Notes: generated by a model from the letters alone, not told the origin. A stretch of 64,000 bases of DNA from a virus (IMGVR_UViG_3300035696_000016:1-64000), one strand, 5' to 3'; shown: positions 2,577-63,753, counted from the first letter of the stretch. Translations and numbers: made by a program.

Positions 2577-2735
2577 ATGACAAATCTAAAACGTGAAATC
2601 AAATTATTAGTGAATACTTATGTTGTATCAAAACACTTATACGTTAAGACAGAAACATTCATTGAAACATATAATTTTATTCGTCATACACATTTTACAG
2701 TCGAACAATTGGAAAAATATCTATTACTAATATGA
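2577..2735 (+). CDS. 52-aa tailed protein, family F (not in ORF track)
   Basis: MTNLKREIK...HTHFTVEQLEKYLLLI-stop; ATGA overlap with the next ORF. Confidence 0.7.
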   Translation: MTNLKREIKLLVNTYVVSKHLYVKTETFIETYNFIRHTHFTVEQLEKYLLLI

Positions 2736-2866
2736 AACAGTTAATAGAAACATACAAAGCAACAAATGTTGTTGTATCATTGAGTTATTTTATTGAAGTG
2801 TATAACTTCATTCATAAAACGCACTTCACCGCAGAACAATTAGAGAAAATATTACTGCTTATATGA
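2732..2866 (+). CDS. 44-aa tailed protein, family F (not in ORF track)
   Basis: MKQLIETY...YNFIHKTHFTAEQLEKILLLI-stop; paralog of 2577. Confidence 0.7.
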   Translation: MKQLIETYKATNVVVSLSYFIEVYNFIHKTHFTAEQLEKILLLI

Positions 2867-3210
2867 AGAAATATACTTGCAAGGTATGCAATAAAGAACT
2901 ATCGTCATTGTCCAAAAACATATTGTCTTGCAATGGAAATGATACTTTTATTCTTCCAGCGGATCATAATTATTCAATCATTCTAAATGATAACGGAACA
3001 TTGTTTTCCGAAGAAATTATGATTTATAATATAATTAATAGCGTTGGTTATTTAGTTGATGTAAATTATGTATTATGTAATACAGTTTTTGCAACAATAA
3101 GAGAAAATCGTTTCTCACATAAAATAAAACAGAATACAATTTATTCGTTGGATAATTTTGATAAAGAAGTTTTTATGAAGCGTTTTGATAAATTGATGGT
3201 GTTATTTTGA
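2863..3210 (+). CDS. Tailed protein, family D (N-terminal CxxC)
   Basis: CKVC; ends FDKLMVLF. Confidence 0.7.
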   Translation: MKKYTCKVCNKELSSLSKNILSCNGNDTFILPADHNYSIILNDNGTLFSEEIMIYNIINSVGYLVDVNYVLCNTVFATIRENRFSHKIKQNTIYSLDNFDKEVFMKRFDKLMVLF

Positions 3211-3443
3211 GATGCGTCGATGCTGGGTTAGATATGTGCGTGGAATGTCAGGTGGAAGAATATAGATATTGTCATCTTGTATGGGAAAGAGAATATATTA
3301 AACCTAAAAGCGATAGTTTCATAATAAGATATTACAGTGGGATGATAAATGTATCGCATAACATATATTACATTCGCAACGCTATTAAGACAGATCGTCC
3401 TCATTTAATTGAAAAAATAGACAAACTAATGGTGCTAATATGA
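3207..3443 (+). CDS. Tailed Cys-rich protein, family E
   Basis: C..C..C pattern; ends RPHLIEKIDKLMVLI. Confidence 0.7.
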   Translation: MRCVDAGLDMCVECQVEEYRYCHLVWEREYIKPKSDSFIIRYYSGMINVSHNIYYIRNAIKTDRPHLIEKIDKLMVLI

Positions 3444-3698
3444 CTTGTGAAGATTTAGGTATAAGATTATGCATTCATTGTAGAGAGCAAAGTGGATCCA
3501 CTTGTTGGTCAGAGGACTACTGCAATGATGATAGAATCATTGGTCAGCCAGATCAAACGATAATAAAACATTTTTTTCAACGCGATGAATCATAGTTCTT
3601 GGAGAGATCTATATTGGTATGTCGAAGCAATAAAGAGATACCGTCCTCATCTGATTGAAAAAATAGATAAGTTAGTCATACTATGGGATAGCAAATAA
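3440..3698 (+). pseudogene. Frameshifted paralog of 3207 (family E)
   Basis: MTCEDLGIRLCIHC...; deleting one T from the T7 run at 3571-3577 restores ...RPHLIEKIDKLVILWDSK. Confidence 0.6.
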
Positions 3699-3699
3699 A

Positions 3700-4734: not shown

Positions 4735-5055
4735 ATGGATATTCACTGCCCACGATGTAATATAGAGTGGTCAGAGAAAAATGAGAAAGAACAATCTTAC
4801 ATATGGTATACTTGTGATTGTGGATTGGAATTAGTTAGACGCAGCAATAGTTTTTATTATTACGACGATCATTCCAGCCTACATCATAAATATCCTACCA
4901 CTTGGTTCAGTCATAATAATAAATGTCGTATCGTTATATTTAATCCAAATAAGAAACGACACGAAGATAATGATTTTGTTGAACTGAACAAATGGATTAG
5001 TTTTGATTTAGAAAAAGCAAAACGACAAATTGAAAACATATTATTATTGATGTGA
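4735..5055 (+). CDS. Tailed protein, family D (zinc ribbon)
   Basis: CPRC..CDC; ends IENILLLM. Confidence 0.7.
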   Translation: MDIHCPRCNIEWSEKNEKEQSYIWYTCDCGLELVRRSNSFYYYDDHSSLHHKYPTTWFSHNNKCRIVIFNPNKKRHEDNDFVELNKWISFDLEKAKRQIENILLLM

Positions 5056-5491: not shown

Positions 5492-5804
5492 AAGTCCCAC
5501 AAATCCCACAGAGTATTGGAATATAGTGGATGCTTATTGGAATGATATTTTTCATATTCTAAATATCTATCTTCCAACATTCCGCAATTTTTGGATTGAT
5601 AAAACAAAATTGAATAAAACACTTGGCGAATATCTAATTGAATTGAAGGATACGAGAAATCCTAAATTGATTAGAGCAATTAGCGCCGGGTTGTGGAACA
5701 TTCCCGAGGAGAATGAGGGAGAATTGCTCGATAAAGGATTGCTCGTGATGAGAGACCTTGTTGAAAGCGAAGTTTTCTTGTATGAGGAATTAGAAGATGT
5801 TTAG
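5469..5804 (+). CDS. Hypothetical protein
   Basis: 111-aa ORF. Confidence 0.55.
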   Translation: MTSQKTYKSPTNPTEYWNIVDAYWNDIFHILNIYLPTFRNFWIDKTKLNKTLGEYLIELKDTRNPKLIRAISAGLWNIPEENEGELLDKGLLVMRDLVESEVFLYEELEDV

Positions 5805-6096
5805 TCATACAGTTGAAAACAATGGAGATTTATTTATAGTAGATAGTGATTTTACTATGTGTATTGTAAAAAATTGCGGGAGAGCAGAAAACCTTACAGG
5901 TGAAATAGTATGGGACGGGATTGTTTATGCATATGAAACACATACGCCAGATAATGTTGTTAAAAATGTATTTTTTGCGTTGAAAAAATTGGGATGGATG
6001 AAAGCACTTAATCTTTCGCAATTGCGACAATTACTTGATAGTGAAGGTTTATTTAAATATAAAGATGATATTGAAAAGTATTTAATGTTGGTATGA
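5797..6096 (+). CDS. Tailed protein, family A
   Basis: IVDSDF..WDGIVYAYE..NVVKN..YKDDIEKYLMLV. Confidence 0.75.
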   Translation: MFSHTVENNGDLFIVDSDFTMCIVKNCGRAENLTGEIVWDGIVYAYETHTPDNVVKNVFFALKKLGWMKALNLSQLRQLLDSEGLFKYKDDIEKYLMLV

Positions 6097-6102: not shown

Positions 6103-6366
6103 ATGTTTAAAAACAGTATTTATATTGGATCGCATACATATGAAATAGTAGATACTAATTTTACGGAGTTAATTAAATGTAAAGATGATTTTTGGGATTC
6201 ATGGACAGATGAATTCATTGAATTATACAAATCTCGTGGATTAGATGTTGCGGCTAACTTCGTATTGGCATATAAACATTTTTATTTTCAAAGATACGGA
6301 TTACCGAGGACCCAAAAATTAGATCCATATAGAGAAGATATTGCAAAATATTTATTGTTGATGTGA
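6103..6366 (+). CDS. Tailed protein, family A
   Basis: IVDTNFTE..YKSRGLDVAAN..YREDIAKYLLLM. Confidence 0.75.
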   Translation: MFKNSIYIGSHTYEIVDTNFTELIKCKDDFWDSWTDEFIELYKSRGLDVAANFVLAYKHFYFQRYGLPRTQKLDPYREDIAKYLLLM

Positions 6367-10031: not shown

Positions 10032-10364
10032 ATGTTGTTTTGTTCATCTAATAGTAAAGAATATAATCCTATTATGAGTTTTTTCGCATCACATAAATTG
10101 TCTATTGAATATCAATCAAAATCTAATGGTAGATTATATGGATTCTTTTTATTGGAAAATAAAAATCGTTATAGATTACAAATCTTGGCTGGCGGGTATC
10201 TTACAATATGTGGTGAGCAACGATCTGCAATAGCAGGAGATTATGATTCTATAACAGAAACTATCGATTGGAATGATTTAGATTTACTAAAAGATTTTTT
10301 ACCAGATGATGTAAGAAAATATTGTGAGTTCGTTGTGAGGTATCCAATTTTATATGATTTTTAA
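10032..10364 (+). CDS. Hypothetical protein, family G (tail degenerate)
   Basis: Shares YxSxxNGR and P.D.R.Y...VVR with 10354. Confidence 0.6.
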   Translation: MLFCSSNSKEYNPIMSFFASHKLSIEYQSKSNGRLYGFFLLENKNRYRLQILAGGYLTICGEQRSAIAGDYDSITETIDWNDLDLLKDFLPDDVRKYCEFVVRYPILYDF

Positions 10365-10650
10365 GTCTTCCAATGGTCGCACATACAAAGCCGACTTCAA
10401 TAAAAAATATTCTTGGTTAGAAGATAATAGATTTTACCTCGAAATCATAAAAGGCAATCCTATTAGATGTCGTAATGATGGTTCAGGCGATGACAGGGTA
10501 TATGCAATAGCACCATATTATGATCCTATTGCAGGTATAATTTATTGGGAAAATAAGGGACGAGATGAGCAAGATATGATCAACGCGTTCGTTCCGCAAG
10601 ACTTGCGCGAGTATTTAGACAAAGTAGTTAGGAAACTGGTGTTATTATGA
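10354..10650 (+). CDS. Tailed protein, family G
   Basis: Ends VPQDLREYLDKVVRKLVLL. Confidence 0.65.
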   Translation: MIFKSSNGRTYKADFNKKYSWLEDNRFYLEIIKGNPIRCRNDGSGDDRVYAIAPYYDPIAGIIYWENKGRDEQDMINAFVPQDLREYLDKVVRKLVLL

Positions 10651-11395: not shown

Positions 11396-11722
11396 ATGTT
11401 TATTCGATATGACTATATTTTACCTTTTAGTGAAAACCCAAATTCCTTTAAAAAATGGAAATATAAAATAATTGATAATGATTTTATAGAAGAAGGAACA
11501 GAGTATGGTGTAGGAATATGGTATTCATGTATTAATACATATGAAAAACGTAATCTTCCGGTCGTTCCTAATTTAATCAGAGTATTTAGATGGTATACAA
11601 ATTACCTTACCAAGCATGGTTTAAATTACGATATCAATTATGCAATGGGTGCATGCAGAATGCACGAGCCGAAATTTTCAAAATACGAAAACGAAGTTAA
11701 AAAGTATCTACTATTAGTTTGA
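11396..11722 (+). CDS. Tailed protein, family A
   Basis: IIDNDFIEE..YEKRNLPVVPN..YENEVKKYLLLV. Confidence 0.75.
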   Translation: MFIRYDYILPFSENPNSFKKWKYKIIDNDFIEEGTEYGVGIWYSCINTYEKRNLPVVPNLIRVFRWYTNYLTKHGLNYDINYAMGACRMHEPKFSKYENEVKKYLLLV

Positions 11723-15246: not shown

Positions 15247-15267
15247 CAATAAAATGGCATAATTATT

Positions 15268-15585: not shown

Positions 15586-15587
15586 CG

Positions 15588-15977
15588 GTGAAAAAAAAAG
15601 ACGCTAAAATAGAATTAATAAAGATCTTTTCAGAAACCAAATACGAGTTCGCTTATATAGATGATAAGTTCGTTTCTAATTTTATTGCAGTGATGTGGAA
15701 AAATGTATTCGACAATACAAAATCAGCAATAAAATCAGGCAGAAAAGAAGTCGTTATTGACGATTTTATTGTATCGTCGTATTCGGGTAAATACCCTCCG
15801 CATGAACGATCTCATGTATATGATCAAATGCTTCCGTATATCAGACAAGAATTAGATAATAGCGAAATACCATACATTGAAGATTGTTATACGATAAATA
15901 AGACAGCAAGATTTAAGATTGATTTAGAAGACTTGAAAAAGTTTTCTAATGTAGATAGATTAACTATTTTAAAGTAG
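15588..15977 (+). CDS. Tailed protein (singleton)
   Basis: Ends VDRLTILK. Confidence 0.6.
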   Translation: MKKKDAKIELIKIFSETKYEFAYIDDKFVSNFIAVMWKNVFDNTKSAIKSGRKEVVIDDFIVSSYSGKYPPHERSHVYDQMLPYIRQELDNSEIPYIEDCYTINKTARFKIDLEDLKKFSNVDRLTILK

Positions 15978-15986
15978 AGAAGTCTA

Positions 15987-16148: not shown

Positions 16149-16173
16149 TGCATACATAGACCAAAATTAGTTA

Positions 16174-17447: not shown

Positions 17448-17655
17448 AACTTACTATAAAGTCTATTTTATATGTTGGTTGCCAGATAGTTTTGGCAACA
17501 TAACAACGGAATTAGATGATCGAACAGAGAGAACAAAATACTTCGATACAAAAGAAGATGCTATTGAGTATATAGAAGAAACAAAATCTTGGCAAAAAGA
17601 ATGGCTGGCGACGATTGAATTGAAAAAAATTGTTGAAACAGATGAATCGATCTAG
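17437..17655 (+). CDS. Hypothetical protein
   Basis: ORF with F.TKEDA motif. Confidence 0.5.
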   Translation: MNGKTYYKVYFICWLPDSFGNITTELDDRTERTKYFDTKEDAIEYIEETKSWQKEWLATIELKKIVETDESI

Positions 17656-17932
17656 ATATCTTTTGCCATATCAAAAGGTTCGCTTACCGCTTGATCGAAT
17701 GCTCAATTTAGATAGATATGTTCGTTGTTTTCTATCAGGAGAATATTTAGATATTTTTGCTGATGGACATATTGTATGTTCAATGGATTTTGTGAGCAAG
17801 GAAAGATATTGGCTTATAACCTCAAAACAAAAACGACATGTTTCCTTGCAAGAAGCAATGGCAGATCTGGATCAAAGATTGATTGAACAGGGTTATATAT
17901 TATTGACAGAAAAACAGGCATTATTAATTTAA
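17642..17932 (+). CDS. Tailed protein, family B
   Basis: YLLPY...LDQRLIEQGYILLTEKQALLI. Confidence 0.75.
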   Translation: MNRSRYLLPYQKVRLPLDRMLNLDRYVRCFLSGEYLDIFADGHIVCSMDFVSKERYWLITSKQKRHVSLQEAMADLDQRLIEQGYILLTEKQALLI

Positions 17933-18189
17933 TGGATAAACATAAGTATCTAACACCATATCGTCCAGTTAAGCGCCTTGATGCTCGCCCAAGTTGTGAT
18001 TTTGGAAGATATTTTGTGAAAAATAATTTATGTATTTGTATGGTGTATCAAACAAATGTTGGTTTTTGGACACATACAAGAACTTATAGAAGTTTTAATA
18101 CAAAAGAAGCAGCAATAACAAGTTTAGATACAATACTTACTAATGGTGGTTATATTCTATTGACAGAAGAACAGATGTTATTGATATGA
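17932..18189 (+). CDS. Tailed protein, family B
   Basis: YLTPY...LDTILTNGGYILLTEEQMLLI. Confidence 0.75.
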   Translation: MDKHKYLTPYRPVKRLDARPSCDFGRYFVKNNLCICMVYQTNVGFWTHTRTYRSFNTKEAAITSLDTILTNGGYILLTEEQMLLI

Positions 18190-18500
18190 AAGAAAGTAAA
18201 TTACTATCACCTTGGTCAGTTTTTGTTGATGAACAACAAATCGATACAAATATTTTTGTTAGATGGAGAATTGGCGGAAACGATTTACAGCCAGAGTTGT
18301 GGGGTGCGTGGGTTGCTTATTACGGTTTTGATAAATCATTTAGTCGTGCAATACATTACATAATATGTTCATCTTATAATAGAATGGGTGATTTTTCCTC
18401 CATACAAGAAGGACAGAATCTGATTGATAAAGAACTAACTGATCTTGGTTATATATTATGTAATCAGGAACAATGGGACAAATATTCGTTGTTAATATGA
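18186..18500 (+). CDS. Tailed protein, family B
   Basis: LLSPW...IDKELTDLGYILCNQEQWDKYSLLI. Confidence 0.75.
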   Translation: MKESKLLSPWSVFVDEQQIDTNIFVRWRIGGNDLQPELWGAWVAYYGFDKSFSRAIHYIICSSYNRMGDFSSIQEGQNLIDKELTDLGYILCNQEQWDKYSLLI

Positions 18501-18727
18501 AAGAAAGTTATATACTATCACCTTGGCGAGCACGAAAGTTTGACTATTACACCCGATATTACAGAATATCGTTAAATAATATCATTCGAGCATCACATAT
18601 TATGGGGCATGATTCCAATCATGAGTTTTGGATTGTTATGGGTAGTATAGACAGAGAACTAATAAGTGCCGGGTATAAATTATGCTCTTCGGAAGAAGGG
18701 TTTGATAAGTATAGGTTGCTGGTGTGA
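18497..18727 (+). CDS. Tailed protein, family B
   Basis: ILSPW...IDRELISAGYKLCSSEEGFDKYRLLV. Confidence 0.75.
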   Translation: MKESYILSPWRARKFDYYTRYYRISLNNIIRASHIMGHDSNHEFWIVMGSIDRELISAGYKLCSSEEGFDKYRLLV

Positions 18728-19011
18728 TTATGGATAAGACAAAATTAGTATCACCTTGGATCATCGTTGCAGAAACGGAAAGAGAATGGAGACAGTACAG
18801 ACTATCACTCGGGGCTCCGTCGTTGGTAGGAAATATAGTAAAAACTAAAGTACAAAACAGGCTTTATTATTGTGGACGAGTAATAGGAGAATACAGTCAA
18901 ATATTCTCATTATTGAGCAGCGCCATACATTATGTAGATAAGCAATTATTGGATGATGAATATGTGTTCTTGACCCAAGAAGAATGGGATAAATACCAGT
19001 TGCTAATGTAG
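18724..19011 (+). CDS. Tailed protein, family B
   Basis: LVSPW...VDKQLLDDEYVFLTQEEWDKYQLLM. Confidence 0.75.
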   Translation: MIMDKTKLVSPWIIVAETEREWRQYRLSLGAPSLVGNIVKTKVQNRLYYCGRVIGEYSQIFSLLSSAIHYVDKQLLDDEYVFLTQEEWDKYQLLM

Positions 19012-21814: not shown

Positions 21815-22081
21815 GTGAGTAGAAAATATCTTTCTCCATATGTGAATGGTAATCTTGGTTCAGAAAGTTATTGTCGTCGTTTATTAGGTTCTGACAATAG
21901 TTTCTATGTATGGAGAGCCGTCAAGGGTGAATGGTATCATGTAAGCGGAACTCAATGGGATCCAAGCGTGTCTTGTTCCTCTTTTGAGGAAGCATCTAAT
22001 GCTTTAGATAAGGAACTTATTGAACAAGGATACATCTTTCTTACAGAAGACCAATGGGATAAATATCAATTGTTATGTTAA
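21815..22081 (+). CDS. Tailed protein, family B
   Basis: YLSPY...LDKELIEQGYIFLTEDQWDKYQLLC. Confidence 0.75.
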   Translation: MSRKYLSPYVNGNLGSESYCRRLLGSDNSFYVWRAVKGEWYHVSGTQWDPSVSCSSFEEASNALDKELIEQGYIFLTEDQWDKYQLLC

Positions 22082-22530
22082 TCAATATTCCTCCATTCAT
22101 ATCTTATGTTCGTTCCGAATTCATATTCGATGATATGACGGGACAGCAGTATTTTCAGGATGCAACAGCATTCGCAATATCATCTCGACCAAATGAAACA
22201 TTGAAGTTTGAGATACTTGTAGGTGAAGGTAGGATGTATTCGGAAGTTTCGGTTGCCGCCTTGACGAACAGCAAGGAAGCGGTTAAGTTAAGTGATGAGA
22301 GTTGCAGTTATTCGGTATTCAGCGATGACAAGGTTTCAATTATTGTCCTTGAATACCTTGTTGGATTAGGGACTTGCATTGTCAATAATAAAGATGGTTC
22401 GCATTGGCAAAATGGTCAATATGTATTGACAGTCAAATGGGAAAATCTAAAACAACAGTTGCATCTAATCGAGTTGGATGATGGTAATTACGTGTTTTGG
22501 GACAATGAAGGATTGGTGTGGGGTCAATGA
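22075..22530 (+). CDS. Hypothetical protein
   Basis: 151-aa ORF (NIPP..YVR.EF; HLIELDDGN). Confidence 0.6.
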   Translation: MLINIPPFISYVRSEFIFDDMTGQQYFQDATAFAISSRPNETLKFEILVGEGRMYSEVSVAALTNSKEAVKLSDESCSYSVFSDDKVSIIVLEYLVGLGTCIVNNKDGSHWQNGQYVLTVKWENLKQQLHLIELDDGNYVFWDNEGLVWGQ

Positions 22531-22724
22531 AAAAGATGATTTTTGATCTTTCTAAAACATCAAAGGTTTCTTTTGAATATAGAGCCGATTTTAATGATAT
22601 TTATATGACATTAGGAAGTGTTGGTTCTCGTGGAATAGTCAGTGGAATAGTCATTCATATGGACGAGATTGAAGGGCTATCACTCGCTATTGAACGAGTA
22701 AAAAGACTAATGGTATTAGCGTGA
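22527..22724 (+). CDS. Tailed protein, family C (PC4-like)
   Basis: FDLSKTSKVS..SGIVI..IERVKRLMVLA. Confidence 0.7.
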   Translation: MKKMIFDLSKTSKVSFEYRADFNDIYMTLGSVGSRGIVSGIVIHMDEIEGLSLAIERVKRLMVLA

Positions 22725-22957
22725 AAGAAATAAAACTAAAAATCGAAAGCGAAATGGAAAGGCGATTAGTCGTCAAAGTTTTTGATGATGGTAGTATTGA
22801 CTTAATTTTTGATCGTATGGCTAGTTGGGAAACAACAGACGGAAAACATTTTGAAAGAAATTGGGTATCCGATCATGTCGGAGCGATATCAATAGAGGAT
22901 ATGAAATCGCTTGGTGATGCGATCATAAAAGCATCTAAATTATTGGTATTGATGTGA
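22721..22957 (+). CDS. Tailed protein, family C (PC4-like)
   Basis: RRLVV..W..ISIEDMKSLGDAIIKASKLLVLM. Confidence 0.7.
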   Translation: MKEIKLKIESEMERRLVVKVFDDGSIDLIFDRMASWETTDGKHFERNWVSDHVGAISIEDMKSLGDAIIKASKLLVLM

Positions 22958-23160
22958 AAAATAAAGAACTAACCTTCGATCTTCAAGAAGGATATAGAGT
23001 TAAAATCGTAGTGAGTGGTGCAATATATATTTATATTCAAGAGCATTATAAAGAAGAAGATAAATGGATAAATCTTAGCGATATGTATATTGTGGAAAGC
23101 GATTTTGATAAGTTTGCGGATAGTATTGAAAAAGTTAGAAAACTAATGGTTTTGGCGTGA
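22954..23160 (+). CDS. Tailed protein, family C (PC4-like)
   Basis: FDLQEGYRVKI..IYIQEHYKEEDKW..IEKVRKLMVLA. Confidence 0.7.
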   Translation: MKNKELTFDLQEGYRVKIVVSGAIYIYIQEHYKEEDKWINLSDMYIVESDFDKFADSIEKVRKLMVLA

Positions 23161-23440: not shown

Positions 23441-24571
23441 ATGGCATCACCATCATCTAATTTTAACATGCAGCAAATCAATACCAAGGAACTTGCAGAC
23501 ATTACGGCTGCAACGATTCAGTTTGGCGGGAACGTTTTCTCGTGCGCAAGACGTGGAAGCGGTAAGTCAGCAATTGGTAAGTCTTGCATTAGGAACTCGG
23601 GTTTTAGTTCATTATATCTTAATGCCAGCACGTTCGAACGAACGGACGCAGGTGGATTCCCGAAGATTATGGACGTAAAGGAAGCAGAGTTCATTAAGTT
23701 CCTGCTTCCATATTACTACGAAACGCTAATGAAGGGCAATGAAAAGGTTGTCGTTTTCTTCGACGAAATCGATAAGATGGATCATAGCGTTATTGCACCG
23801 CTGCTTGAATTTACCCAGTTCCACACAATCAATGGTCGCAGTCTTCCTAATCTCCAAGCCGTTCTAATGGCAGGAAATCTTCCCAATGAAGGTGGTTCTC
23901 GTCCGCCGCTGCCACTTCTCGACCGTGCAGAGAAGTATCTTGTTGAAGCAACAACAACGCAATGGCTTGACTGGGCAGCAAAGGAAGGCAAGATCCACGC
24001 TTCTATTACAGCGTATCTTCATGATCATCCCGACGATCTTTTCGGCGACACAGATCCGGGCGATGTTTATGCGGATCCTTCTCCACGCGGTTGGCATAAT
24101 TATTCTGAAATCGTCAATTTTGGTGAGCAACATAAATGGGGTCATAATCTTCTAACGCTCAAAGCATCAGGTTGCGTTGGTCGTAAGGCTGGTATCAAGT
24201 ATGCTGCATACTTCGATCACTATCAGGTTCTACTCCCAATCGTTGAGAAGGTTATGCGCGGCGAAGACATCAAGGGTTTTGATGATCTCGAACCAAGCAA
24301 GCGATGTGTTGCATGCATGATTGTTTGTTCTCGTCTTGCACGCATTCTTGATGAGAATGCAGAAAAGAACAAGAACAAAAAGAAGGATGCTCGTGAGTTG
24401 CCGCGAGAGACAGAAACGGTTGCAAGGTTCTTGCGAAAGGTTGATCCGGAGTTGGCACTTGTTAGTATCCGATCACAAATCGGACTTGATCGAACGGTTG
24501 ATATGGATCTTGATCGATCGCCAGAGTTCGATGCAATTTTGAGGGAACTATCTGGTCGTATGAATGGCTAA
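23441..24571 (+). CDS. AAA+ ATPase (MoxR/AAA_5-like)
   Basis: Walker A RRGSGKS, Walker B FFDEID, AGN sensor, LDR, PSPRGW. Confidence 0.85.
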   Translation: MASPSSNFNMQQINTKELADITAATIQFGGNVFSCARRGSGKSAIGKSCIRNSGFSSLYLNASTFERTDAGGFPKIMDVKEAEFIKFLLPYYYETLMKGNEKVVVFFDEIDKMDHSVIAPLLEFTQFHTINGRSLPNLQAVLMAGNLPNEGGSRPPLPLLDRAEKYLVEATTTQWLDWAAKEGKIHASITAYLHDHPDDLFGDTDPGDVYADPSPRGWHNYSEIVNFGEQHKWGHNLLTLKASGCVGRKAGIKYAAYFDHYQVLLPIVEKVMRGEDIKGFDDLEPSKRCVACMIVCSRLARILDENAEKNKNKKKDARELPRETETVARFLRKVDPELALVSIRSQIGLDRTVDMDLDRSPEFDAILRELSGRMNG

Positions 24572-39398: not shown

Positions 39399-40207
39399 AT
39401 CGACCATTTATTTTCCTATCAGGTGAGTTCCGTATAACATTACCGCTTGTGTTTCAACACGAACGGTGGCAACATTGCATGAATGCTCGGATATTAGAAT
39501 TGAATGACAATAAATCATTCCATCGTAAAAATAACGATGAAAAATTACTTGGTTGCATATATCACGCAGACGTTTCCGACGACACAATCAGACGACAAAA
39601 CTTCCATTTTCTAATTGACAACAATATTCCTTGCTATCCCGATCCAAGAAAATTGCTTGCGATAGACAATAGGCATGTGTGCATGGAGAAGGTTATTCGT
39701 GCCAATTTACATACCAATGTAGTTGTTCAATCCAAATACACGAAAGATATTCCAATACAATATCCATTCGTCGTAAAGACCGGAAATGAGCATCAAGGGC
39801 AAGGAAAGTTTTTAGTTAGGAACGAATTAGAGTTGCCAAGATGGGATGGTATTGCAACGATAGAACCGTTTTTTGATGGCGTATCTTGCAGGGTGTTGTG
39901 GATTGGTGATGATTGGTTTAATCTTCGTTTTGACAATGAAACTTCGTGGATAAAAAACAGCAGCGGAGCAGAGGCTTCATTATATCCAGAGATGCCACAA
40001 GGAGTTATAGATCATTCACGCAAAGTAAAAGAATTGTTTGGATTGGATGTTTGTGGAATTGATTATATTGTCGGAAAAGATGGTTGGTGGTTCTTGGAGT
40101 TCAATTATGCGCCGGGATTGGATGTAAGCAATCAAGCTACGGAAGTGGTTAATAAGTTTTTTGGAAGCAAGATGAAATGGGTTGAGGAACAGGTTTATGG
40201 AATATAA
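39395..40207 (+). CDS. RimK-like ATP-grasp ligase
   Basis: YPFVVKTGNEHQGQGK, EPF, RV, W..N, GLDVCGID, LEFN.APG. Confidence 0.75.
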   Translation: MNRPFIFLSGEFRITLPLVFQHERWQHCMNARILELNDNKSFHRKNNDEKLLGCIYHADVSDDTIRRQNFHFLIDNNIPCYPDPRKLLAIDNRHVCMEKVIRANLHTNVVVQSKYTKDIPIQYPFVVKTGNEHQGQGKFLVRNELELPRWDGIATIEPFFDGVSCRVLWIGDDWFNLRFDNETSWIKNSSGAEASLYPEMPQGVIDHSRKVKELFGLDVCGIDYIVGKDGWWFLEFNYAPGLDVSNQATEVVNKFFGSKMKWVEEQVYGI

Positions 40208-40439
40208 GGAAGTAAGAATTGCTCATACGAGCGCAAGCCCCAATGAGGAGTTCATATGTATCGATTTATATGTGGATAATATAGATTCAGAATATGACAT
40301 AGATAAAATGGAAAACAAAACTCGGTTTAGAATTGGAAACAAGGGCGAGTATTTTTGTTTGAATACGGTTCTTTTAATGAATATAAATGAACCAAAAGAA
40401 ACATTGTGTAGATTTTTCAAATTATTGATGTTGCAATAA
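40197..40439 (+). CDS. Tailed protein (singleton)
   Basis: Ends RFFKLLMLQ. Confidence 0.6.
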   Translation: MEYKEVRIAHTSASPNEEFICIDLYVDNIDSEYDIDKMENKTRFRIGNKGEYFCLNTVLLMNINEPKETLCRFFKLLMLQ

Positions 40440-40754
40440 ATGATTACAGGTATTAGTTTTGAATATTGTGGGGCAAAACAGCAAGCACATTATATTGTGT
40501 ATGATACGGATTTTGAATTAAATATTGAAACTACGATGCTTTCATTTACATCCAATCCTTATATATTCGAATGTCTAAAAGTAATTATAGATGTATATAA
40601 GGAAAAACAATTAAATGTTGCCGCTAATATTGCACATTGGCTGATTATTTTCTATCCTTCCACTGCTCACTCATATTTAGAGCAATTTAAAATGAACATA
40701 CCGGCATACAATAAGTATGCGAATGATGTAGAAAAGTATCTATTACTAATGTAA
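40440..40754 (+). CDS. Tailed protein, family A
   Basis: VYDTDFE..YKEKQLNVAAN..YANDVEKYLLLM. Confidence 0.75.
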   Translation: MITGISFEYCGAKQQAHYIVYDTDFELNIETTMLSFTSNPYIFECLKVIIDVYKEKQLNVAANIAHWLIIFYPSTAHSYLEQFKMNIPAYNKYANDVEKYLLLM

Positions 40755-44021: not shown

Positions 44022-44588
44022 ATGACAACAAAATCATTACTATTAAATCTCCTAAAACAGTATTCCTATCGACAAGGTTCATTCACCCTTGCGTCGGGAC
44101 AACAGAGCAGTTTCTTCCTCGACTGCAAGCCCACATTATTGCAATCGCAAGGACATATACTATCCGCAGAACTCATCTTCGATGAAATCATAAAACTTCG
44201 ACAATACCAAAACATAGGAACGGTTGCAGGAGTTCCACTTGGTGGTTGCAGTCTTGCATCAGCGGTATCTACATATAGCGCAATGCAACGAACAGATATA
44301 ATACATTCACCAGTCAATGCATTGTATATTCGTAAGCAAGCAAAAGACCACGGGACACAACAATTAATTGAAGGCTACGCCGACAACAAGTCAGGTATAG
44401 TTTTACTCGAAGACGTAATCACAAGCGGAGGCTCATCAATTATTGCCCTTGACACATTATATCAAAATGGCTATAATCCAGTAGCAGTTATATGTGTGGT
44501 GGATCGCCTTGCTGGTGGTAAAGAAAATATAGAAAAGAAGTTTCGCATTCCAGTGGTATCGTTGTTTTCGATTGAGGATTTTCAATAA
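44022..44588 (+). CDS. pyrE: Orotate phosphoribosyltransferase
   Basis: FTLASGQQS.FFLD, RKQAKDHG, LLEDVITSGGS, VVDR. Confidence 0.92.
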   Translation: MTTKSLLLNLLKQYSYRQGSFTLASGQQSSFFLDCKPTLLQSQGHILSAELIFDEIIKLRQYQNIGTVAGVPLGGCSLASAVSTYSAMQRTDIIHSPVNALYIRKQAKDHGTQQLIEGYADNKSGIVLLEDVITSGGSSIIALDTLYQNGYNPVAVICVVDRLAGGKENIEKKFRIPVVSLFSIEDFQ

Positions 44589-44878
44589 TGTTCGTTAAGT
44601 CATATAAATCTGATGATGATTGGATTATAGAAGATACGGATTTTATAGAAAAAATAGTGAATCCTCCACCAGTGTCTGGATGGGAACTGATTGTTTGGGT
44701 GTATGAGAAGAAAAATCTTGATGTCGTCAAAAACTTATTACTTGCAATGGATCAATATGATATATTGACTTGTTTTACCCATATGGATATTTTTAATTAT
44801 AGTGATGAACATAAAGAATATTATTCTAAATACCTTAAATATAAAGACGAAGTTGCAAAATACTTGATGTTAGTTTGA
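44588..44878 (+). CDS. Tailed protein, family A
   Basis: IEDTDFIE..SGWE..VYEKKNLDVVKN..YKDEVAKYLMLV. Confidence 0.75.
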   Translation: MFVKSYKSDDDWIIEDTDFIEKIVNPPPVSGWELIVWVYEKKNLDVVKNLLLAMDQYDILTCFTHMDIFNYSDEHKEYYSKYLKYKDEVAKYLMLV

Positions 44879-44887: not shown

Positions 44888-45220
44888 ATGTTTATTCGTA
44901 GTAGCAGCGCCTATAAAGGTAATACATTATTCTTCACAATAGAAGATTCAGATTTTACTGAAACAATAGAAATGGAAAACTTAAAGCATTCTGGATGGGA
45001 AGCAATTATCAGAGTATATGAGCAAAGAAACCTAAATGTTGCCAAAAATCTAATGCGCGCCATGGTGGCTCCATTTTATGGAAATAATAACAGTTCTTAT
45101 ACAGATATTTATTTAATTATAAATGCTATAAATGCTATAAATCATAAAGATATGATAGAATATAATCCGAGTTTTCATAAGTATGCTGATGAAATTAAAA
45201 AATATCTATTGCTAATATGA
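44888..45220 (+). CDS. Tailed protein, family A
   Basis: IEDSDFTE..SGWE..VYEQRNLNVAKN..YADEIKKYLLLI. Confidence 0.75.
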   Translation: MFIRSSSAYKGNTLFFTIEDSDFTETIEMENLKHSGWEAIIRVYEQRNLNVAKNLMRAMVAPFYGNNNSSYTDIYLIINAINAINHKDMIEYNPSFHKYADEIKKYLLLI

Positions 45221-45630
45221 ATAAATTAGAACAATATAAAAATATAATTAAATATGATACATGCCCCGTATGTGGTAATAAAGATATGATGTATGAGAAG
45301 ATGGGCGATAATCCCAATGTCGCGCGTCCAAAAGAATATCCATTCGAACTTAGTATAGCATGCTATATTGATAAAGATATTACTAATTACAGCCATTATT
45401 TTCAAAATATAGATAATGAAAATCATACCTATTGGAACTTACGATATAAACATAATGGATACGTTTATGAGATAACCAATTCCTACAAGAACGGATTAAT
45501 ACGTTCATATTTTTATTTTTCTGAAACGGGGCATAAAGTTGATTGGGTTTATAGTCCGGGTAAAGATTTTAGCAATCTATCAAAAGAAGAAGTAATCAAA
45601 TTAATTGATAAGGCGGTATTATTGAAATGA
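45217..45630 (+). CDS. Tailed protein, family D
   Basis: CPVC; ends IDKAVLLK. Confidence 0.7.
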   Translation: MNKLEQYKNIIKYDTCPVCGNKDMMYEKMGDNPNVARPKEYPFELSIACYIDKDITNYSHYFQNIDNENHTYWNLRYKHNGYVYEITNSYKNGLIRSYFYFSETGHKVDWVYSPGKDFSNLSKEEVIKLIDKAVLLK

Positions 45631-46460: not shown

Positions 46461-46844
46461 ATGAATCTAATCTATCCTAAATGCATTATATGCGACGATA
46501 AATGGGACGATGATCCCCGTGATATATTATGGGAAAATGAAAGTTTAGATCTATTTTGTTCAAATAACCACGACACAATATGGTATTCCCAAAGTAAAGA
46601 TGGTGAATGCAGTTTTGATAGGAACATCCACAATCTATGCGGACATGAGTTCTTGCTTCGATATAATTGTAATTGCGTAATAGATGCTTGTCGTAATAAA
46701 AATGTAATCTATAATTACTCACACACGCGAAACCATGGATGGCATCCAGATAAAATAATAAAAATATTCGATCCTCCATTGCCATTAAATGTATCTCACG
46801 AAGATTTATGGAATAAAATTGAGCACCTATTGGTATTACTATAA
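46461..46844 (+). CDS. Tailed protein, family D
   Basis: CIIC; ends IEHLLVLL. Confidence 0.7.
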   Translation: MNLIYPKCIICDDKWDDDPRDILWENESLDLFCSNNHDTIWYSQSKDGECSFDRNIHNLCGHEFLLRYNCNCVIDACRNKNVIYNYSHTRNHGWHPDKIIKIFDPPLPLNVSHEDLWNKIEHLLVLL

Positions 46845-47089: not shown

Positions 47090-47287
47090 ATGAGTGAGAT
47101 ATTACATTACTTGCGCTTAAACGCAACACAACATAATTTTTCAAATAAAATAAGAATACTTAATTCGGTCAAAGACTTAAAACAGTTATTCATACAAAAT
47201 TGTAATGACCCTATATTTATTGATGTTTTAAAAAATAATTTTCCGATATATTACGAAATCCTCGAACCGCTAATCTTATTAAAATAG
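47090..47287 (+). CDS. Tailed protein, family E-like
   Basis: LKNNFPIYYEILEPLILLK. Confidence 0.6.
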   Translation: MSEILHYLRLNATQHNFSNKIRILNSVKDLKQLFIQNCNDPIFIDVLKNNFPIYYEILEPLILLK

Positions 47288-47400: not shown

Positions 47401-47658
47401 ATGAGTTTTGTAAATTGTTCAATGTTTGATATTGAAAAATGTTGGATGTGTTGTCGCGAAGATTCCAGTATTACTGGAAGTTGTTCGATTAATTATTTTT
47501 ACCGTCGTATTAAGTATATAGAAAATGTAAAAGATTTTATAGTTCGTGTATTTAATGCTAAATCGTCCAAGGACAAATCTATATATTTACAAAAATCAAT
47601 AGAATATCATTTTCCACAATATATAAAGTTATATAACACGATATCGCTATTATACTAA
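47401..47658 (+). CDS. Tailed Cys-rich protein, family E
   Basis: C..CWMC..C; IEYHFPQYIKLYNTISLLY. Confidence 0.65.
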   Translation: MSFVNCSMFDIEKCWMCCREDSSITGSCSINYFYRRIKYIENVKDFIVRVFNAKSSKDKSIYLQKSIEYHFPQYIKLYNTISLLY

Positions 47659-47676: not shown

Positions 47677-48375
47677 GTGGAAAATATTTACCTTTCTGCT
47701 ATCCATAATGTAGTTAAAATTGAAAATAAAAAAGAGCGTTTAGAACAAGTAAAAGAATTAGAAGATTACATATTCGAGACTAAAAACACATATATGGCGT
47801 TGCGACTTGCATATGAATTAGAGTTCATTGGGGTCAGGACTACGCGAATAGAAAATTATATATGTAAAACTGGTAATGGGCGTTTGATTTACCGTTTTGC
47901 TTCTAATATAGAAAAATCAAATATTCAAAAACTCCAAAATGCGATCATTGAATCGAATGATTTTGAAGAAATGGCGCGTTTTGCTTGTTTTGTTAATGGA
48001 GCAGATAAGAATAAAATAGGCGATATCATTGCTCAATCAAACAACATTAAAGCACAATACTTATACATGTGCTTCGTTAAGACATACCCATATATTAATT
48101 TTAGAGAAAGTGTATTAAAATCAAAACGACCACGGTATATTTTTCAATACGCAAAAGTATCAAAAAATGAAAAAGATTTAGAAATAATTCAGGAATTAAT
48201 TTTGAATAGTAAAAGTCTTATGTATTGTAGATTATTTTGCAAAATGTTTCCAAAAATGGATATAAAACGATTCGAGGACAAAGTCTTACGAAGTAAGAAC
48301 GCAAGAGAAATTAGATTATTCGCCAATGAGATTCCGTCAGCAGAACGAGCCAGAACGATGATGTTGTTATTCTAA
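47677..48375 (+). CDS. Helical-repeat protein with tail
   Basis: Roughly 29-aa repeats (I..S.....Y.FA..V...D...L); ends ARTMMLLF. Confidence 0.65.
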   Translation: MENIYLSAIHNVVKIENKKERLEQVKELEDYIFETKNTYMALRLAYELEFIGVRTTRIENYICKTGNGRLIYRFASNIEKSNIQKLQNAIIESNDFEEMARFACFVNGADKNKIGDIIAQSNNIKAQYLYMCFVKTYPYINFRESVLKSKRPRYIFQYAKVSKNEKDLEIIQELILNSKSLMYCRLFCKMFPKMDIKRFEDKVLRSKNAREIRLFANEIPSAERARTMMLLF

Positions 48376-52294: not shown

Positions 52295-52531
52295 ATGTCA
52301 GAACGAAAACTTACATGGTCAGATGAAGAAATAATCGTCATCAATCCTATGATTTATGTTGTTGATGCGATAAAAAGAAATGACAAAACAGTTAACTTAT
52401 CAAATATTAATAAATTAATAAAATTGTGTTTCTCACTTTCCCTAAATAGAAAAGAATATATTCTCGATAGAATTGAGAAGGCGTTCCCTCATTTAAAAGA
52501 CGAAATAGATAAATATAGGATTTTAGTATGA
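52295..52531 (+). CDS. Tailed protein, family E-like
   Basis: IEKAFPHLKDEIDKYRILV. Confidence 0.65.
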   Translation: MSERKLTWSDEEIIVINPMIYVVDAIKRNDKTVNLSNINKLIKLCFSLSLNRKEYILDRIEKAFPHLKDEIDKYRILV

Positions 52532-61556: not shown

Positions 61557-61572
61557 TTCCACATATTACTAT

Positions 61573-62712
61573 ATGAACCATCGTCAGCGCATCCGCATAT
61601 TAAAACTTGCCCAAGCAAATCCGTCAGCAGGTGCGCCAGCCAGTGCCCCCGGAACCGTTCCAGTGGCATCAACAACGACAACAACGGATAACAATACAGA
61701 TGCTTCAACAACCACGTCAGCACCAACTCTCAATTCTTCGCAAGCATCCGTCAATATCCGTGCCCTCCCATCGTTTCGACCTCAATTATTCCAACTTCGA
61801 CCAGATCTAATTGATGACTTCGGGAAACTCGCAAACACAATCAATAGATATCTTTTATTGTTGTCAGGAAACGTTATTAGTTTTTCAACGGTATATACAA
61901 ATCCTGCAATCACAGGCGATCAATATACACAAAGCGTAAAAAACCTATTAACGCTTGCAAAATGGATATATAACCTAATAACATCGCACGGGCCAGAATA
62001 CACAGTAGGCGTTCTTCAACAGATGACACAAACCTTACTATCTATGGTCAAATCATATGCGTTTTCCGAAAATAATGCCACAAACGCTCAAACAGAATTA
62101 GTTTCACAGGTGCAAACAATTATTACAAAACTTGGAACCGCAAATAAAACAAGCCAAGAAAGACAGCGTATTCTTCGCAGATTGGCACAAGCAAATCCAT
62201 CCGCAGGAGCACCAGCATCGGCACCGGGAACATCGGCAACATCAGCACCAACCACAACGACGACTTCCACTACAACGCCAACAACGACAACAACACCGGC
62301 AGCAGTAAAAATAGATATTCAGGCAATTCCGGGTTTTCGTCCCGATTTATTTTCTCAAAGACCAGATTTAATTCTCGATATGAGCAGAATTATTAATGCG
62401 GTGAATGGTTATTTACAAATGCTAACTCAAAATCAGGTCAATTTTCAGATGACTTGGCTTAATCCGAGTGTATCAGGGAGTGAGTATGTCAATAGTGTAA
62501 AAAACCTATATAATCTTGCAAAATGGTTATTCGGGGTTTTGACAACAAAAACAACAAAGTTTTATTCATTGGATGGATTAAAACAAATTGCCACAACTAT
62601 GATCAGTATGGTGCGTCAGTATTCTTTCCCAGAGCCATCAATGTCAAACACAGCAAGTCAATTAATAGCAATGAGTGAGAGTATGTTAGCAAAACTTGGC
62701 ACAACAAAATAA
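61573..62712 (+). CDS. Two-repeat protein with Thr-rich linkers, possibly virion-associated
   Basis: LAQANPSAGAPASAPGT occurs twice; the domain I.A.P.FRP.LF..RPDLI.D...SVKNL..LAKW..F.E..KLGT occurs twice. Confidence 0.7.
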   Translation: MNHRQRIRILKLAQANPSAGAPASAPGTVPVASTTTTTDNNTDASTTTSAPTLNSSQASVNIRALPSFRPQLFQLRPDLIDDFGKLANTINRYLLLLSGNVISFSTVYTNPAITGDQYTQSVKNLLTLAKWIYNLITSHGPEYTVGVLQQMTQTLLSMVKSYAFSENNATNAQTELVSQVQTIITKLGTANKTSQERQRILRRLAQANPSAGAPASAPGTSATSAPTTTTTSTTTPTTTTTPAAVKIDIQAIPGFRPDLFSQRPDLILDMSRIINAVNGYLQMLTQNQVNFQMTWLNPSVSGSEYVNSVKNLYNLAKWLFGVLTTKTTKFYSLDGLKQIATTMISMVRQYSFPEPSMSNTASQLIAMSESMLAKLGTTK

Positions 62713-62732
62713 ATCATTGATATATTGTTAAT

Positions 62733-63485
62733 ATGCTTACAACATTGCGTGAAAGGATCAAATCCTATGAGGATCAGTCCGATATAAAATTATTGAAAAA
62801 ACTTCCAGTCATAACGATTGTGAATGGAAGGCAATTTAAGAAACTTACGTCGTTATTAAATAAACCATTCGATATTAATTTTTTTGAGATATTTACTGCA
62901 ACGGCAATAAAACTAATGCAAGAAATTGATGGAAGTGTATTTTCATATTCTTTTAATGATGAAATTGTAATTATTAGTCGAAACGATCAAACAAACGATA
63001 CACAGCCATATTATGACAATCGAGTGCAAAAAATAGTTTCAGCAACAGCATCGATTGCAAGCATTGAATTTAGTAAAATGGCGGGAGCAAAGAATGTAGA
63101 CTTATTCGGAGATCCGATATTTACGAGCAAGTGTTTTGTCGTCCCTCATATTGGAGAGGCAATAAATACATTGATAGCAAAACAGCAACAATGTTTTCAT
63201 ATAGGGTTATATCAATGTTGTTTTTACAACTTGGTAAAACAACACGATATTGAAATAGTAAAAGAGACATTGGCTAAAAAAACCGTTGATGATAAGTTAG
63301 AGATTTTAATGGAAGATTTTGGAATAGATTTTAACGCCCTGCCCTTGACAATCCGCCGAGGCGTGGGAGTATATAGGGCAGTGGCGGAGGGGCTTGACAA
63401 ACCGCGGAAAAAGATTTATATTAACACGGAACTTCCCGTTTTTGCCAAGGCTCCGGAGTTTTTGAAAGATATTTTGAATGGATAA
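62733..63485 (+). CDS. Thg1-like tRNA(His) guanylyltransferase, degenerate
   Basis: RIKSYE, PVITIVNGRQF, KPFD, Y.FNDEI, R.QK..S..AS, RRG; TGATATATT at 62718 suggests a leaderless start. Confidence 0.8.
   Translation: MLTTLRERIKSYEDQSDIKLLKKLPVITIVNGRQFKKLTSLLNKPFDINFFEIFTATAIKLMQEIDGSVFSYSFNDEIVIISRNDQTNDTQPYYDNRVQKIVSATASIASIEFSKMAGAKNVDLFGDPIFTSKCFVVPHIGEAINTLIAKQQQCFHIGLYQCCFYNLVKQHDIEIVKETLAKKTVDDKLEILMEDFGIDFNALPLTIRRGVGVYRAVAEGLDKPRKKIYINTELPVFAKAPEFLKDILNG
63394..63422 (+). promoter_or_regulatory. sigma70-type promoter inside the Thg1-like gene
   Basis: TTGACA-17 bp-TATATT, 55 nt before the family-B ORF at 63478. Confidence 0.65.
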
Positions 63486-63753
63486 ATTATATTACTTAAC
63501 TCCGTGGCAGAAAAAACAAGATGATTTTTATTTTGCACGATATTCCATTGGTGATAATTTTAGACGAGCAATAGTATATCTAATCGAACCATACAAGAAA
63601 ACTAATGATAGTGAATGGGCTGGTTCGGAAACTGGTAATAAATTGTGCAAAACCAAAAAAGAAATTATGAAACGCACAGATAAAGAGTTGGTGGATCGCG
63701 GGTATATCTTACTAACGCAAGAACAATATGATAAACTCATAATTTTAGTATGA
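63478..63753 (+). CDS. Tailed protein, family B
   Basis: YLTPW...DKELVDRGYILLTQEQYDKLIILV. Confidence 0.75.
   Translation: MDKLYYLTPWQKKQDDFYFARYSIGDNFRRAIVYLIEPYKKTNDSEWAGSETGNKLCKTKKEIMKRTDKELVDRGYILLTQEQYDKLIILV

Follow-up and report, generated by a model that had tools for sequence, protein, structure and literature searches.

A shared C-terminal tail on many small proteins of a huge-phage lineage, with an AAA+/metallopeptidase-VWA gene pair as its candidate reader

The stretch of DNA considered here, called the window, is the first 64 kb (64,000 nucleotides) of the 120,590-bp virus record IMGVR_UViG_3300035696_000016 (G000; 33% G+C; 28% complete by the CheckV estimate), and our subject is a short tail shared by the C-termini of many small proteins encoded in it. 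The gene content of G000 is that of a huge phage of bacteria. The window encodes a UvrD-like helicase, a polynucleotide kinase-phosphatase, RlaP, and a DUF444/YeaH-like protein, and the record beyond the window encodes a Pol III alpha subunit, RecA, topoisomerase I, SbcCD-like proteins, and trigger factor. A relative, G001 (406,470 bp, 95% complete), is syntenic with the window at 10-27 kb. Genes were called crudely, as the greedy longest non-overlapping open reading frames (ORFs) of at least 40 amino acids, giving 129 in the window and 221 in G000. One ORF of interest, at 52295, is missing from this call, which kept an overlapping minus-strand ORF instead, and is real by direct translation. 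The tailed ORFs and a gene pair that lies among them are listed in Table 1.

Table 1. Tailed ORFs of the window and the candidate reader genes (positions counted from the first nucleotide of the window; aa, amino acids; pLDDT, predicted local distance difference test)
Feature	Position	Strand	Remarks
Tailed ORF	2577..2735	+	52 aa, ...EQLEKYLLLI; pair D with 2732
Tailed ORF	2732..2866	+	44 aa, ...EQLEKILLLI; pair D with 2577
Tailed ORF	2863..3210	+	115 aa, ...RFDKLMVLF; one N-terminal CxxC
Tailed ORF	3207..3443	+	78 aa, ...KIDKLMVLI
Tailed ORF	4735..5055	+	106 aa, ...QIENILLLM; one N-terminal CxxC
Tailed ORF, family A	5797..6096	+	...DDIEKYLMLV
Tailed ORF, family A	6103..6366	+	...EDIAKYLLLM
Tailed ORF	10354..10650	+	98 aa, ...KVVRKLVLL; tail kept in L004 orthologue
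Tailed ORF, family A	11396..11722	+	...NEVKKYLLLV
Tailed ORF	15588..15977	+	129 aa, ...NVDRLTILK
Tailed ORF, family B	17642..17932	+	short tail, ...LLTEKQALLI
Tailed ORF, family B	17932..18189	+	short tail, ...LLTEEQMLLI
Tailed ORF, family B	18186..18500	+	...EQWDKYSLLI
Tailed ORF, family B	18497..18727	+	...EGFDKYRLLV
Tailed ORF, family B	18724..19011	+	...EEWDKYQLLM; TAG stop, then 66-nt gap, no coupled gene
Tailed ORF, family B	21815..22081	+	...DQWDKYQLLC; AlphaFold2 pLDDT 88.3, tail forms helix 78-87
Tailed ORF, family C	22527..22724	+	...ERVKRLMVLA
Tailed ORF, family C	22721..22957	+	...IKASKLLVLM
Tailed ORF, family C	22954..23160	+	...EKVRKLMVLA
AAA+ ATPase, candidate reader	23441..24571	+	376 aa, first gene of pair
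Zincin-like metallopeptidase (DUF2201_N)/VWA-like fusion, candidate reader	25148..27235	+	695 aa, second gene of pair
Tailed ORF, family C	29749..30003	+	...ERLQKLLILK
Tailed ORF, family C	30005..30238	+	...QRMNKLLVLK
Tailed ORF, family C	30235..30441	+	...ERIKKLLILK
Tailed ORF, family C	30438..30659	+	...NKMDKLLVLK
Tailed ORF, family C	30656..30901	+	...QRLEKLLVLK; low-confidence model (pLDDT 59.8), one long C-terminal helix 61-80
Tailed ORF, family C	30898..31074	+	...NKMDKLLVLK; convergent end, no downstream gene
Tailed ORF	33318..33674	+	118 aa, ...NVDTYKLLI; CxxC motifs
Tailed ORF, family A	39084..39398	+	...EQLEKYTLLL
Tailed ORF	40197..40439	+	80 aa, ...CRFFKLLMLQ
Tailed ORF, family A	40440..40754	+	...NDVEKYLLLM
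Tailed ORF, family A	44588..44878	+	...DEVAKYLMLV
Tailed ORF, family A	44888..45220	+	...DEIKKYLLLI
Tailed ORF	45217..45630	+	137 aa, ...LIDKAVLLK; CxxC motif
Tailed ORF	46461..46844	+	127 aa, ...KIEHLLVLL; Cys-rich
Tailed ORF	47090..47287	+	65 aa, ...ILEPLILLK; degenerate tail
Tailed ORF	47401..47658	+	85 aa, ...LYNTISLLY; degenerate tail
Tailed ORF, weakest	47677..48375	+	232 aa, ...RARTMMLLF; poor match, may be chance; convergent end
Tailed ORF	52295..52531	+	78 aa, ...DEIDKYRILV
Tailed ORF, family B	63478..63753	+	...EQYDKLIILV; opens array extending beyond window end

All 38 ORFs that a preliminary description of this DNA had listed as tailed are intact and end in [LIVM]-L-x-stop, and 31 of them carry the K or R at position -6 that it had ascribed to most. 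The loose ending [LIVM]L.$ closes 59 of the 221 ORFs of G000 (40 of which start in the window; the matches at 15268 and 38022 are weak), against 4.8 expected from the internal dipeptide frequency, and the strict ending [DE][KR][YLIM].[LIVM]L.$ closes 31, against 0.21 expected. The strict motif occurs 36 times in the G000 proteome, 31 times exactly at the C-terminus and never at 1-24 residues from the end. Among the 648 ORFs of G001 there are 104 loose, 70 intermediate, and 41 strict endings (0.27 strict expected), and 41 of its 52 strict matches are C-terminal. The comparison of ORF C-termini with composition background that had been proposed earlier thus places both genomes far above background. 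As a control we used 444 ORFs from 30 chance-match loci of other AT-rich phages, which derive from a scan of IMG/VR for DNA able to encode EKYLLLI-stop (33 loci, of which three are true tail genes); none of these ORFs ends in [KR][YLIMF].[LIVM]L.$. The tail is a real element, highly enriched and fixed at the free C-terminus.

A group-weighted logo of 143 tailed proteins in 61 groups, with positions -3 and -2 fixed by the choice of the set, gives E at -10 (0.54), a hydrophobic residue at -8, E/D at -7 (0.64), K/R at -6 (0.75), L/Y/I/F at -5 (0.92), L/M/I at -4 (0.75), an aliphatic residue at -3, L at -2, and a variable last residue. The tail holds about 18.5 bits over 12 residues, and its consensus is E-x-Phi-[D/E]-K-[Y/L]-Phi-Phi-L-x-COOH, some 10-12 residues long. 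At position -1, 55 tails have I (16), K (13), L (7), V (6), M (5), and others. Three family B members (17642-17932, 17932-18189, and 73218-73463 of the contig) lack about one helix turn (W-D-K-Y), as in ...LLTEEQMLLI, but keep Phi-L-L-x, which makes the last four residues the most persistent part of the tail. Among 20 larger ORFs run on Pfam (16 with a match at E<=0.001), none is tailed, in line with the earlier remark that the recognizable enzymes of the window lack the tail.

The carriers are dissimilar, soluble, small ORFans. They range from 44 to 267 amino acids (median 93), some have CxxC motifs, and a transmembrane-like segment is found in 2 of 136 tailed ORFs versus 67 of 367 other small ORFs (p=5e-8). 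Their bodies evolve fast, with 33% non-synonymous codons between G000 and G001. BLAST of the trimmed bodies resolves 136 tailed proteins into 84 clusters, and sequence weighting gives about 61 groups; the large families over G000 and G001 are A (25 members), B (27), and C (10), and every member is tailed. Hidden Markov models (HMMs) of A, B, and C from which the last 10-12 residues had been removed gave no cross-family match at E<0.05, and hhalign of the tail-trimmed profiles gave a probability of 0.1-0.2%. With the tails included, A and B align over ten tail columns only, and B and C reach 41% over 48 columns. The proposal that the tail sits on several N-terminal families with no common sequence therefore holds, as the trimmed-profile, BLAST, and hhalign searches detect no relationship. 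In public metagenomes, family A has 716 representatives (clusters at 50% identity) at E<=1e-3, of which the top 150 have L(-2) in 146 cases and K(-6) in 143; family B homologues from metagenomes likewise keep the tail. A family A member gave no usable feature match in the ESM Atlas, with TM-scores of at most 0.52 to unrelated enzymes. The DGPA/WxNG repeats of the protein encoded at 66792 and its relatives recall MORN-like repeats, a likeness that has no Pfam support at E<=1.

Selection acts on the tail peptide rather than on its DNA, as had been supposed. Leu(-2) is encoded in the 55 tails by TTA (24), TTG (19), CTA (8), CTG (3), and CTT (1), confirming that the Leu codons vary, and the tail also closes the uncoupled ORFs that the preliminary description had pointed to, at 19011 and at the convergent ends 31074 and 48375, the last with a poor match (RTMMLLF). 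We compared the last ten codons with the bodies in 11 orthologous pairs of tailed genes from the window and locus L004. The tails hold 61 identical, 31 synonymous, and 18 non-synonymous codons and the bodies 462, 124, and 284 (synonymous versus non-synonymous, Fisher odds ratio 3.9, p=1e-5), with identical codons making up 55% in tails versus 53% in bodies. Tail positions with the same residue, taken across all tail pairs, share the codon in 51% of cases versus 44% expected from codon usage. The tail DNA is therefore no better conserved than the bodies, yet its changes are mostly silent, which argues for selection on the peptide; the 31 synonymous changes are not what a conserved nucleotide site, named beforehand as a sign against this view, would leave.

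The gene pair listed in Table 1 lies between two family C arrays. The AAA+ protein has Walker A residues G39-x-G41-K42 and Walker B residues D108-E109 that do not vary across 17 homologues. Its best PDB sequence matches are to Midasin AAA modules (3.7e-8), then to ClpB/Hsp104/ClpA; neither the single AAA+ sequence nor the DUF2201 profile found a match when searched against PDB sequences. The second protein matches PF13203 (DUF2201_N; 8e-18) and, over residues 562-692, the VWA-like family PF09967 (4e-8). Its HExxH motif (H141, E142, H145) and the MIDAS residues D566-x-S568-G-S570 are invariant in 26 homologues. It has 129 homologues at E<=1e-10, many of them on contigs of 200-490 kb, while the phage collection holds no close cultured relative (27 records, all below 60% identity and at most 34% coverage, mostly N4-like). 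With a VWA/MIDAS domain that could capture peptides, an intact zincin site, and an ATPase, the pair has what a reader of the tail would need. A LAGLIDADG homing endonuclease gene (27298-28272, plus strand) directly follows the DUF2201 gene. Sigma-70-like sites matching the consensus at 11 of 12 positions (a consensus match only) lie at 19025-19053 and 25077-25104, in the gaps before the DUF444 and DUF2201 genes. A minus-strand site at 21338-21310 also scores 11/12, and in the region scanned (15,000-33,000 of the window) such sites are no commoner than in shuffles.

We surveyed 78 viral loci with a gene for a DUF2201 relative, and 69 of these have an AAA+ homologue immediately upstream of it. 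A generic detector, which links ORFs when at least 4 of their 7 terminal residues are identical and their bodies have no more than one 4-mer in common, found clusters of at least four ORFs with a common lineage-specific C-terminus in 13 of the 78, each with a tail of its own (KKLxMLL, LKEII, VMES, LLxxEI, ILEKL). No cluster of this size occurred in internal or N-terminal control windows of the 78 loci or in the 30 control loci. Over whole records, C-terminal pairs versus control windows number 428 versus 15-36 in G000, 1094 versus 62-111 in G001, 207 versus 76-145 in G004, and 39 versus 11-20 in G007. Six pair-less records (G002, G003, G010, G011, G012, G014) gave no tail cluster, and a tail signal is thus present in 4 of 7 records with the pair versus 0 of 6 without it (one-sided p=0.049). 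The densest tailed region contains the pair in G001, G004, G006, and G007. Among the receptors suggested at the outset, the AAA+ and VWA proteins at 23441 and 25148 are the only candidate with comparative-genomic support. In G009, a pair-bearing record with no shared C-terminal tail, it is N-terminal 7-mers that are shared in excess, with 98 pairs and a largest cluster of 12.

Sister lineages in which the pair is closely homologous (AAA+ proteins 43-51% identical) have a tail built in the same way, except that Phe takes position -2; it reads roughly [KR]-Phi-K-[TN]-[LY]-[LK]-Phi-F-x. In 43 non-redundant close-pair loci (1235 ORFs) there are 81 Phi-Phi-F-x endings versus 9.7 expected, and no such excess is seen in distant-pair loci (4 versus 7.1) or control loci (3 versus 4.2). 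Genome-wide, L(-2) is found 68 times versus 18.8 expected in G000 and 147 versus 53.8 in G001, F(-2) being depleted in both, and F(-2) is found 58 times versus 32.5 in G004, 22 versus 13.7 in G007, and 31 versus 18.5 in G006. In G004, of the 780 pairs that its 40 Phi-F-x ORFs form, only 44 have more than one 4-mer in common. An HMM built on family A bodies alone picks up five paralogues ending in [DG]YL[IVA]F[LMI] in L098/L099, a single lineage represented by near-identical loci of two records. The family A body thus carries L(-2) in one lineage and F(-2) in another, matching in each case the unrelated tailed proteins of the same genome. A single co-evolving reader would explain this concerted change, for which a helix that closes each family's own core offers no reason.

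From these sequence patterns we tentatively read the tail as a recognition tag for one co-evolving partner, of which the AAA+/peptidase-VWA pair is the most likely identity. The tag would mark about 100 accessory proteins, small, soluble, and fast-evolving, in this huge-phage lineage, and as a C-terminally anchored, helix-forming segment it would be read by one common partner. We infer that the AAA+ and zincin-metallopeptidase/VWA proteins may form a two-gene machine, encoded amid the tailed arrays, that captures the tagged proteins and then remodels, cleaves, or destroys them as a group. A fuller picture, which we consider on the doubtful side, is of a private addressing system of huge phages in which the pair reads Phi-Phi-[L/F]-x-COOH after a charged helix, the roughly 100 clients are processed, remodelled, or destroyed on schedule, and tag and reader co-evolve in each lineage to give L- and F-types and, in more distant lineages, acidic types. 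The preliminary description had imagined an address label that sends a diverse effector library to one receptor. The label finds backing in the anchoring, the unrelated bodies, and the concerted L/F change, and the receptor itself is a candidate only; the effector library is conjecture, as no tailed protein has a known domain.

Several results weigh against this reading, both of the pair and of the tail. The AAA+ protein matches the Pfam AAA model only weakly (E=0.0018), and the AAA_5 model has no match in G000 or G001. In 65 of the 78 pair loci there is no cluster of at least four tailed ORFs within 10 kb, and the detector gave no clear cluster in the pair-bearing fragments G006, G008, and G009 (50-62% complete). 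The contrast between records with and without the pair is confounded with genome size and phylogeny, the pair-less controls being 90-219 kb long and four of them apparently interrelated. Tails are also present in G015, which has no DUF2201_N match and is only 32% complete. The link between the pair and the tailed arrays is thus mixed but positive, and not universal. Co-folding of the DUF2201 protein with Mg, Zn, and the family C protein 30656 scored 0.00 in two runs without controls, which counts neither for nor against binding. For the metallopeptidase-vWA and MoxR pair of jumbo phages, virion assembly and structural-protein processing have been proposed (Iyer et al. 2021, PMC7824862, as far as the consulted part of that paper goes). 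On the side of the tail, about 30 tailed proteins, including the longest of both genomes, have no match in Pfam or PHROGs beyond sub-threshold noise, and the tail is retained in homologues of the 267-amino-acid protein 65992 as remote as 28% identity. No tail-less homologue of a tailed protein was found in the families examined. In the family B model the tail helix belongs to a compact, confidently predicted domain (last block pLDDT 84) and may be partly buried, and in the family B sequences the tail is conserved together with the N-terminal strand while the middle varies.

With no known domain bearing an appended tail and no tail-less homologue, there is room for an explanation that needs no reader, namely that the tail is a closing C-terminal or oligomerization helix, the slowest-evolving part of proteins that either form one hyper-diverged superfamily or have recombined with one C-terminal module. 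We consider this somewhat unlikely. It would account for the tail never being found apart from its body in the families examined, for the co-conserved ends of family B, and for the B-C alignment of the full-length profiles, and bodies that change as fast as these could plausibly have lost their sequence similarity. The AlphaFold2 model of family B (pLDDT 88.3) has four strands, a helix, and a strand, followed by the tail as a separate helix (78-87) within the compact fold. Searches found no known fold for this model, the best Foldseek hit against the PDB having E 0.42 and the best hit of a wide VIA-align search a Z of 4.4, below a meaningful level, with anti-CRISPR and SH2 chains among many ties. 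A stretch of 21 bp in the tail-coding DNA is identical between two adjacent, unrelated genes of G000, 65992 and 66792, both ending in ...EKYAMLI (about 66775-66795 and 67020-67040); it hints at module exchange, and it could possibly serve as micro-homology when genes are gained or lost. A core helix specific to one family should, however, diverge with its core, whereas about 61 unrelated groups keep one motif, switch from L to F together between lineages, and end it exactly one residue before the stop codon in 31 of 36 occurrences. The size range of the carriers and the CxxC motifs of some also fit poorly with one structural class, as does the near-zero profile-profile probability once the tails are trimmed. 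The context of the tail differs as well, since in the weak model of family C (pLDDT 59.8) it is the end of one 20-residue helix. Buried core helices of a single fold, which the preliminary description had named as an outcome that would overturn its proposal, are therefore weakened as the sole account by the number of groups and by the differing B and C contexts, but the compact family B model remains in their favor.

The tag might instead be read by something other than the pair, such as a host AAA+ protease or adaptor site (the ClpX N-domain, FtsH, or Lon), DnaK, or another phage protein, and would then serve as a degron for the timed turnover of early proteins, an adaptor tether, or a chaperone handle. 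Anchoring, peptide-level selection, and the concerted L/F switch would fit such a reader equally well, the contig encodes a trigger factor of its own, and the link to the pair is incomplete. The hydrophobic run after Lys also resembles the SspB 'XB' peptide, which binds the ClpX N-domain, and a DnaK model substrate. We nevertheless think this unlikely. The last residue of the tail is variable (K in 13 of 55), unlike that of ssrA, PDZ, and Tsp ligands, and the PDZ/Tsp-type and ssrA-type reading that had been offered earlier fits poorly for the same reason. Family searches of G000 and of the 95%-complete G001 found no ClpP, S41 peptidase, PDZ_2, proteasome/HslV (PF00227), or DnaN. The tag is moreover lineage-specific and changes from L to F between related phages, which is easier to reconcile with a private phage reader than with universally conserved host machines.

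A constraint at the level of translation or DNA, whether termination-reinitiation at ATGA overlaps through the tail DNA or a nascent peptide in the exit tunnel, or micro-homology for shuffling, would suit four observations: a 4-nt overlap (ATGA/GTGA/TTGA) with the next start at 37 of 55 tails versus 27 of 150 other plus-strand genes (odds ratio 9.4), the fixed position of the motif relative to the stop codon, a third base of A or G in 54 of 55 Leu(-2) codons, and the one exact 21-bp repeat. It is very improbable as the main cause, because tails are kept where no gene follows (18724-19011, with synonymous changes) and coupled genes that lack the tail have no similar ending, besides which tail codons are no more often identical than body codons, substitutions in them are largely synonymous, codon sharing between tails is near expectation, and Y/L at -5 and L/I/V/M at -3, chemically alike but different in DNA, are tolerated. 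The overlap dictates the last codon's third base and is probably behind part of the variability at -1.

Other features of the record stand apart from the tail. An IS605 OrfB/TnpB-like gene (PF01385, PF07282) lies within the phage genome at 7949-8842, and a GIY-YIG homing endonuclease gene at 35033-36091 on the minus strand. A 248-amino-acid ORF between two tailed genes (10647-11393) has weak matches to S51 peptidases (PepE, cyanophycinase). ATP-grasp genes are found at 39395-40207 and 56650-57549, the first weakly RimK-like and coupled between tailed genes; we do not take it as a partner of the tail, since its match is weak and adjacency means little where 31% of the window ORFs are tailed. 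A 633-amino-acid methyltransferase/glycosyltransferase has no match in the phage collection. Beyond the window, the phage trigger factor (95719-96960 of G000) is full-length, with N, FKBP, and C domains, and the Pol III alpha protein (DnaE, 99517-103026) and the product of the next ORF (103077-104069) have similar acidic ends (...GLIDLDDE...), a second, distinct shared C-terminus.

If the tail is a tag read by the pair, between about a sixth and a quarter of the 'dark' genes in such huge phages would be clients of one process, and a gene pair conserved in many jumbo and huge phages, for which virion assembly has so far been the guess, would acquire a testable function. The virus would then run its own proteome-wide tagging with lineage-specific tags, and tag and reader could serve as a portable orthogonal tool. 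Even as a structural element the tail is a practical marker that groups hundreds of ORFans, family A alone accounting for 716 clusters.

Several known C-terminal and short linear signals resemble the tail in part. The bacterial beta-clamp-binding motif is QL[SD]LF. The tail has K/R in place of that Gln, before its hydrophobic run, in 47 of 55 cases, and no DnaN domain was found in G000 or G001; as far as the phage genomes go we rejected this likeness. The tail letters also fit the eukaryotic acidic dileucine signal [DE]xxxL[LI] and leucine-rich export signals, readings that we dropped because the genes point to a bacteriophage, whose host lacks the readers. Dot/Icm type IV signals and encapsulin cargo peptides are closer in kind, each a loose C-terminal signal on many unrelated proteins, with acidic residues before a near-terminal hydrophobic one; here, however, no secretion or shell gene is linked and the carriers are phage rather than bacterial proteins. 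The packaging or ejection that had been among the first suggestions finds no support. As regards a cargo peptide for a capsid or encapsulin, the tailed genes of G001 crowd 220-380 kb and are absent from 100-220 kb, a block (unannotated) of few, large ORFs.

AAA+ protease degrons and tethers, such as the ssrA tag and the SspB XB peptide, and HbYX tails are short C-terminal peptides that bring unrelated proteins to one machine. HbYX resembles the phage tail in its hydrophobic -3 residue, an invariant residue, and a variable last one, but position -2 of the phage tail is Leu or Phe and never Tyr in the consensus. For a ring on which to dock, PF00227, as noted, has no match in G000 or G001. The ligands of ssrA and PDZ/Tsp type have a conserved last residue, whereas position -1 of the phage tail holds only 0.73 bit. 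The phage tag also differs from degron and HbYX systems in being private to its lineage, in genomes where family searches found no proteasome/HslV or ClpP.

The MoxR AAA+/vWA systems are similar to the window in gene order and motifs, as here too an AAA+ gene comes just before a gene that fuses a zincin peptidase to a VWA domain, in which HExxH and DxSxS are invariant. Their vWA domains have been proposed to capture a client peptide, which MoxR then remodels (Kaur et al. 2020, PMC7159879, in the part consulted), and in the consulted part of PMC13036017 the extreme C-terminus of NorD contacts the AAA+ ring of NorQ. A metallopeptidase-vWA and MoxR pair has been noted in the 'group 2.2' jumbo phages (PMC7824862). 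The phage system would differ in having about 100 small, soluble ORFan clients rather than one metalloenzyme or structural protein, and its AAA+ protein is not recognized by the AAA_5 model. In the portion of the MoxR/vWA literature available to us, the pair is not connected with a tail common to many small proteins.

Also close are the zincin systems of Kaur et al., in which, according to the consulted part of that paper, zincin-like peptidases with vWA-MoxR nearby act with small, fast-diverging proteins that bear a conserved C-terminal peptide of the FxSxx-COOH type (PMC7159879). The same combination is seen in the window, where the tail is conserved, the bodies diverge, and a DUF2201_N protein with invariant HExxH is encoded between the family C arrays. 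Those systems, as described there, belong to bacterial conflict and have one or a few precursors, which are peptide precursors, whereas here 11-27% of the ORFs of a phage end in a different motif, the carriers look like folded domains (family B pLDDT 88), and any cleavage is putative. In the literature on huge- and jumbo-phage C-terminal motifs, docking tails, MoxR/vWA/metallopeptidase, and DUF2201, represented mainly by titles and abstracts and with supplementary files left out, we found no description of a tail of this kind on many phage proteins. C-terminal tags read by one machine are a known principle, and what appears new is a tag on 11-27% of the ORFs of a phage, in lineage-specific versions and with a candidate reader of its own.

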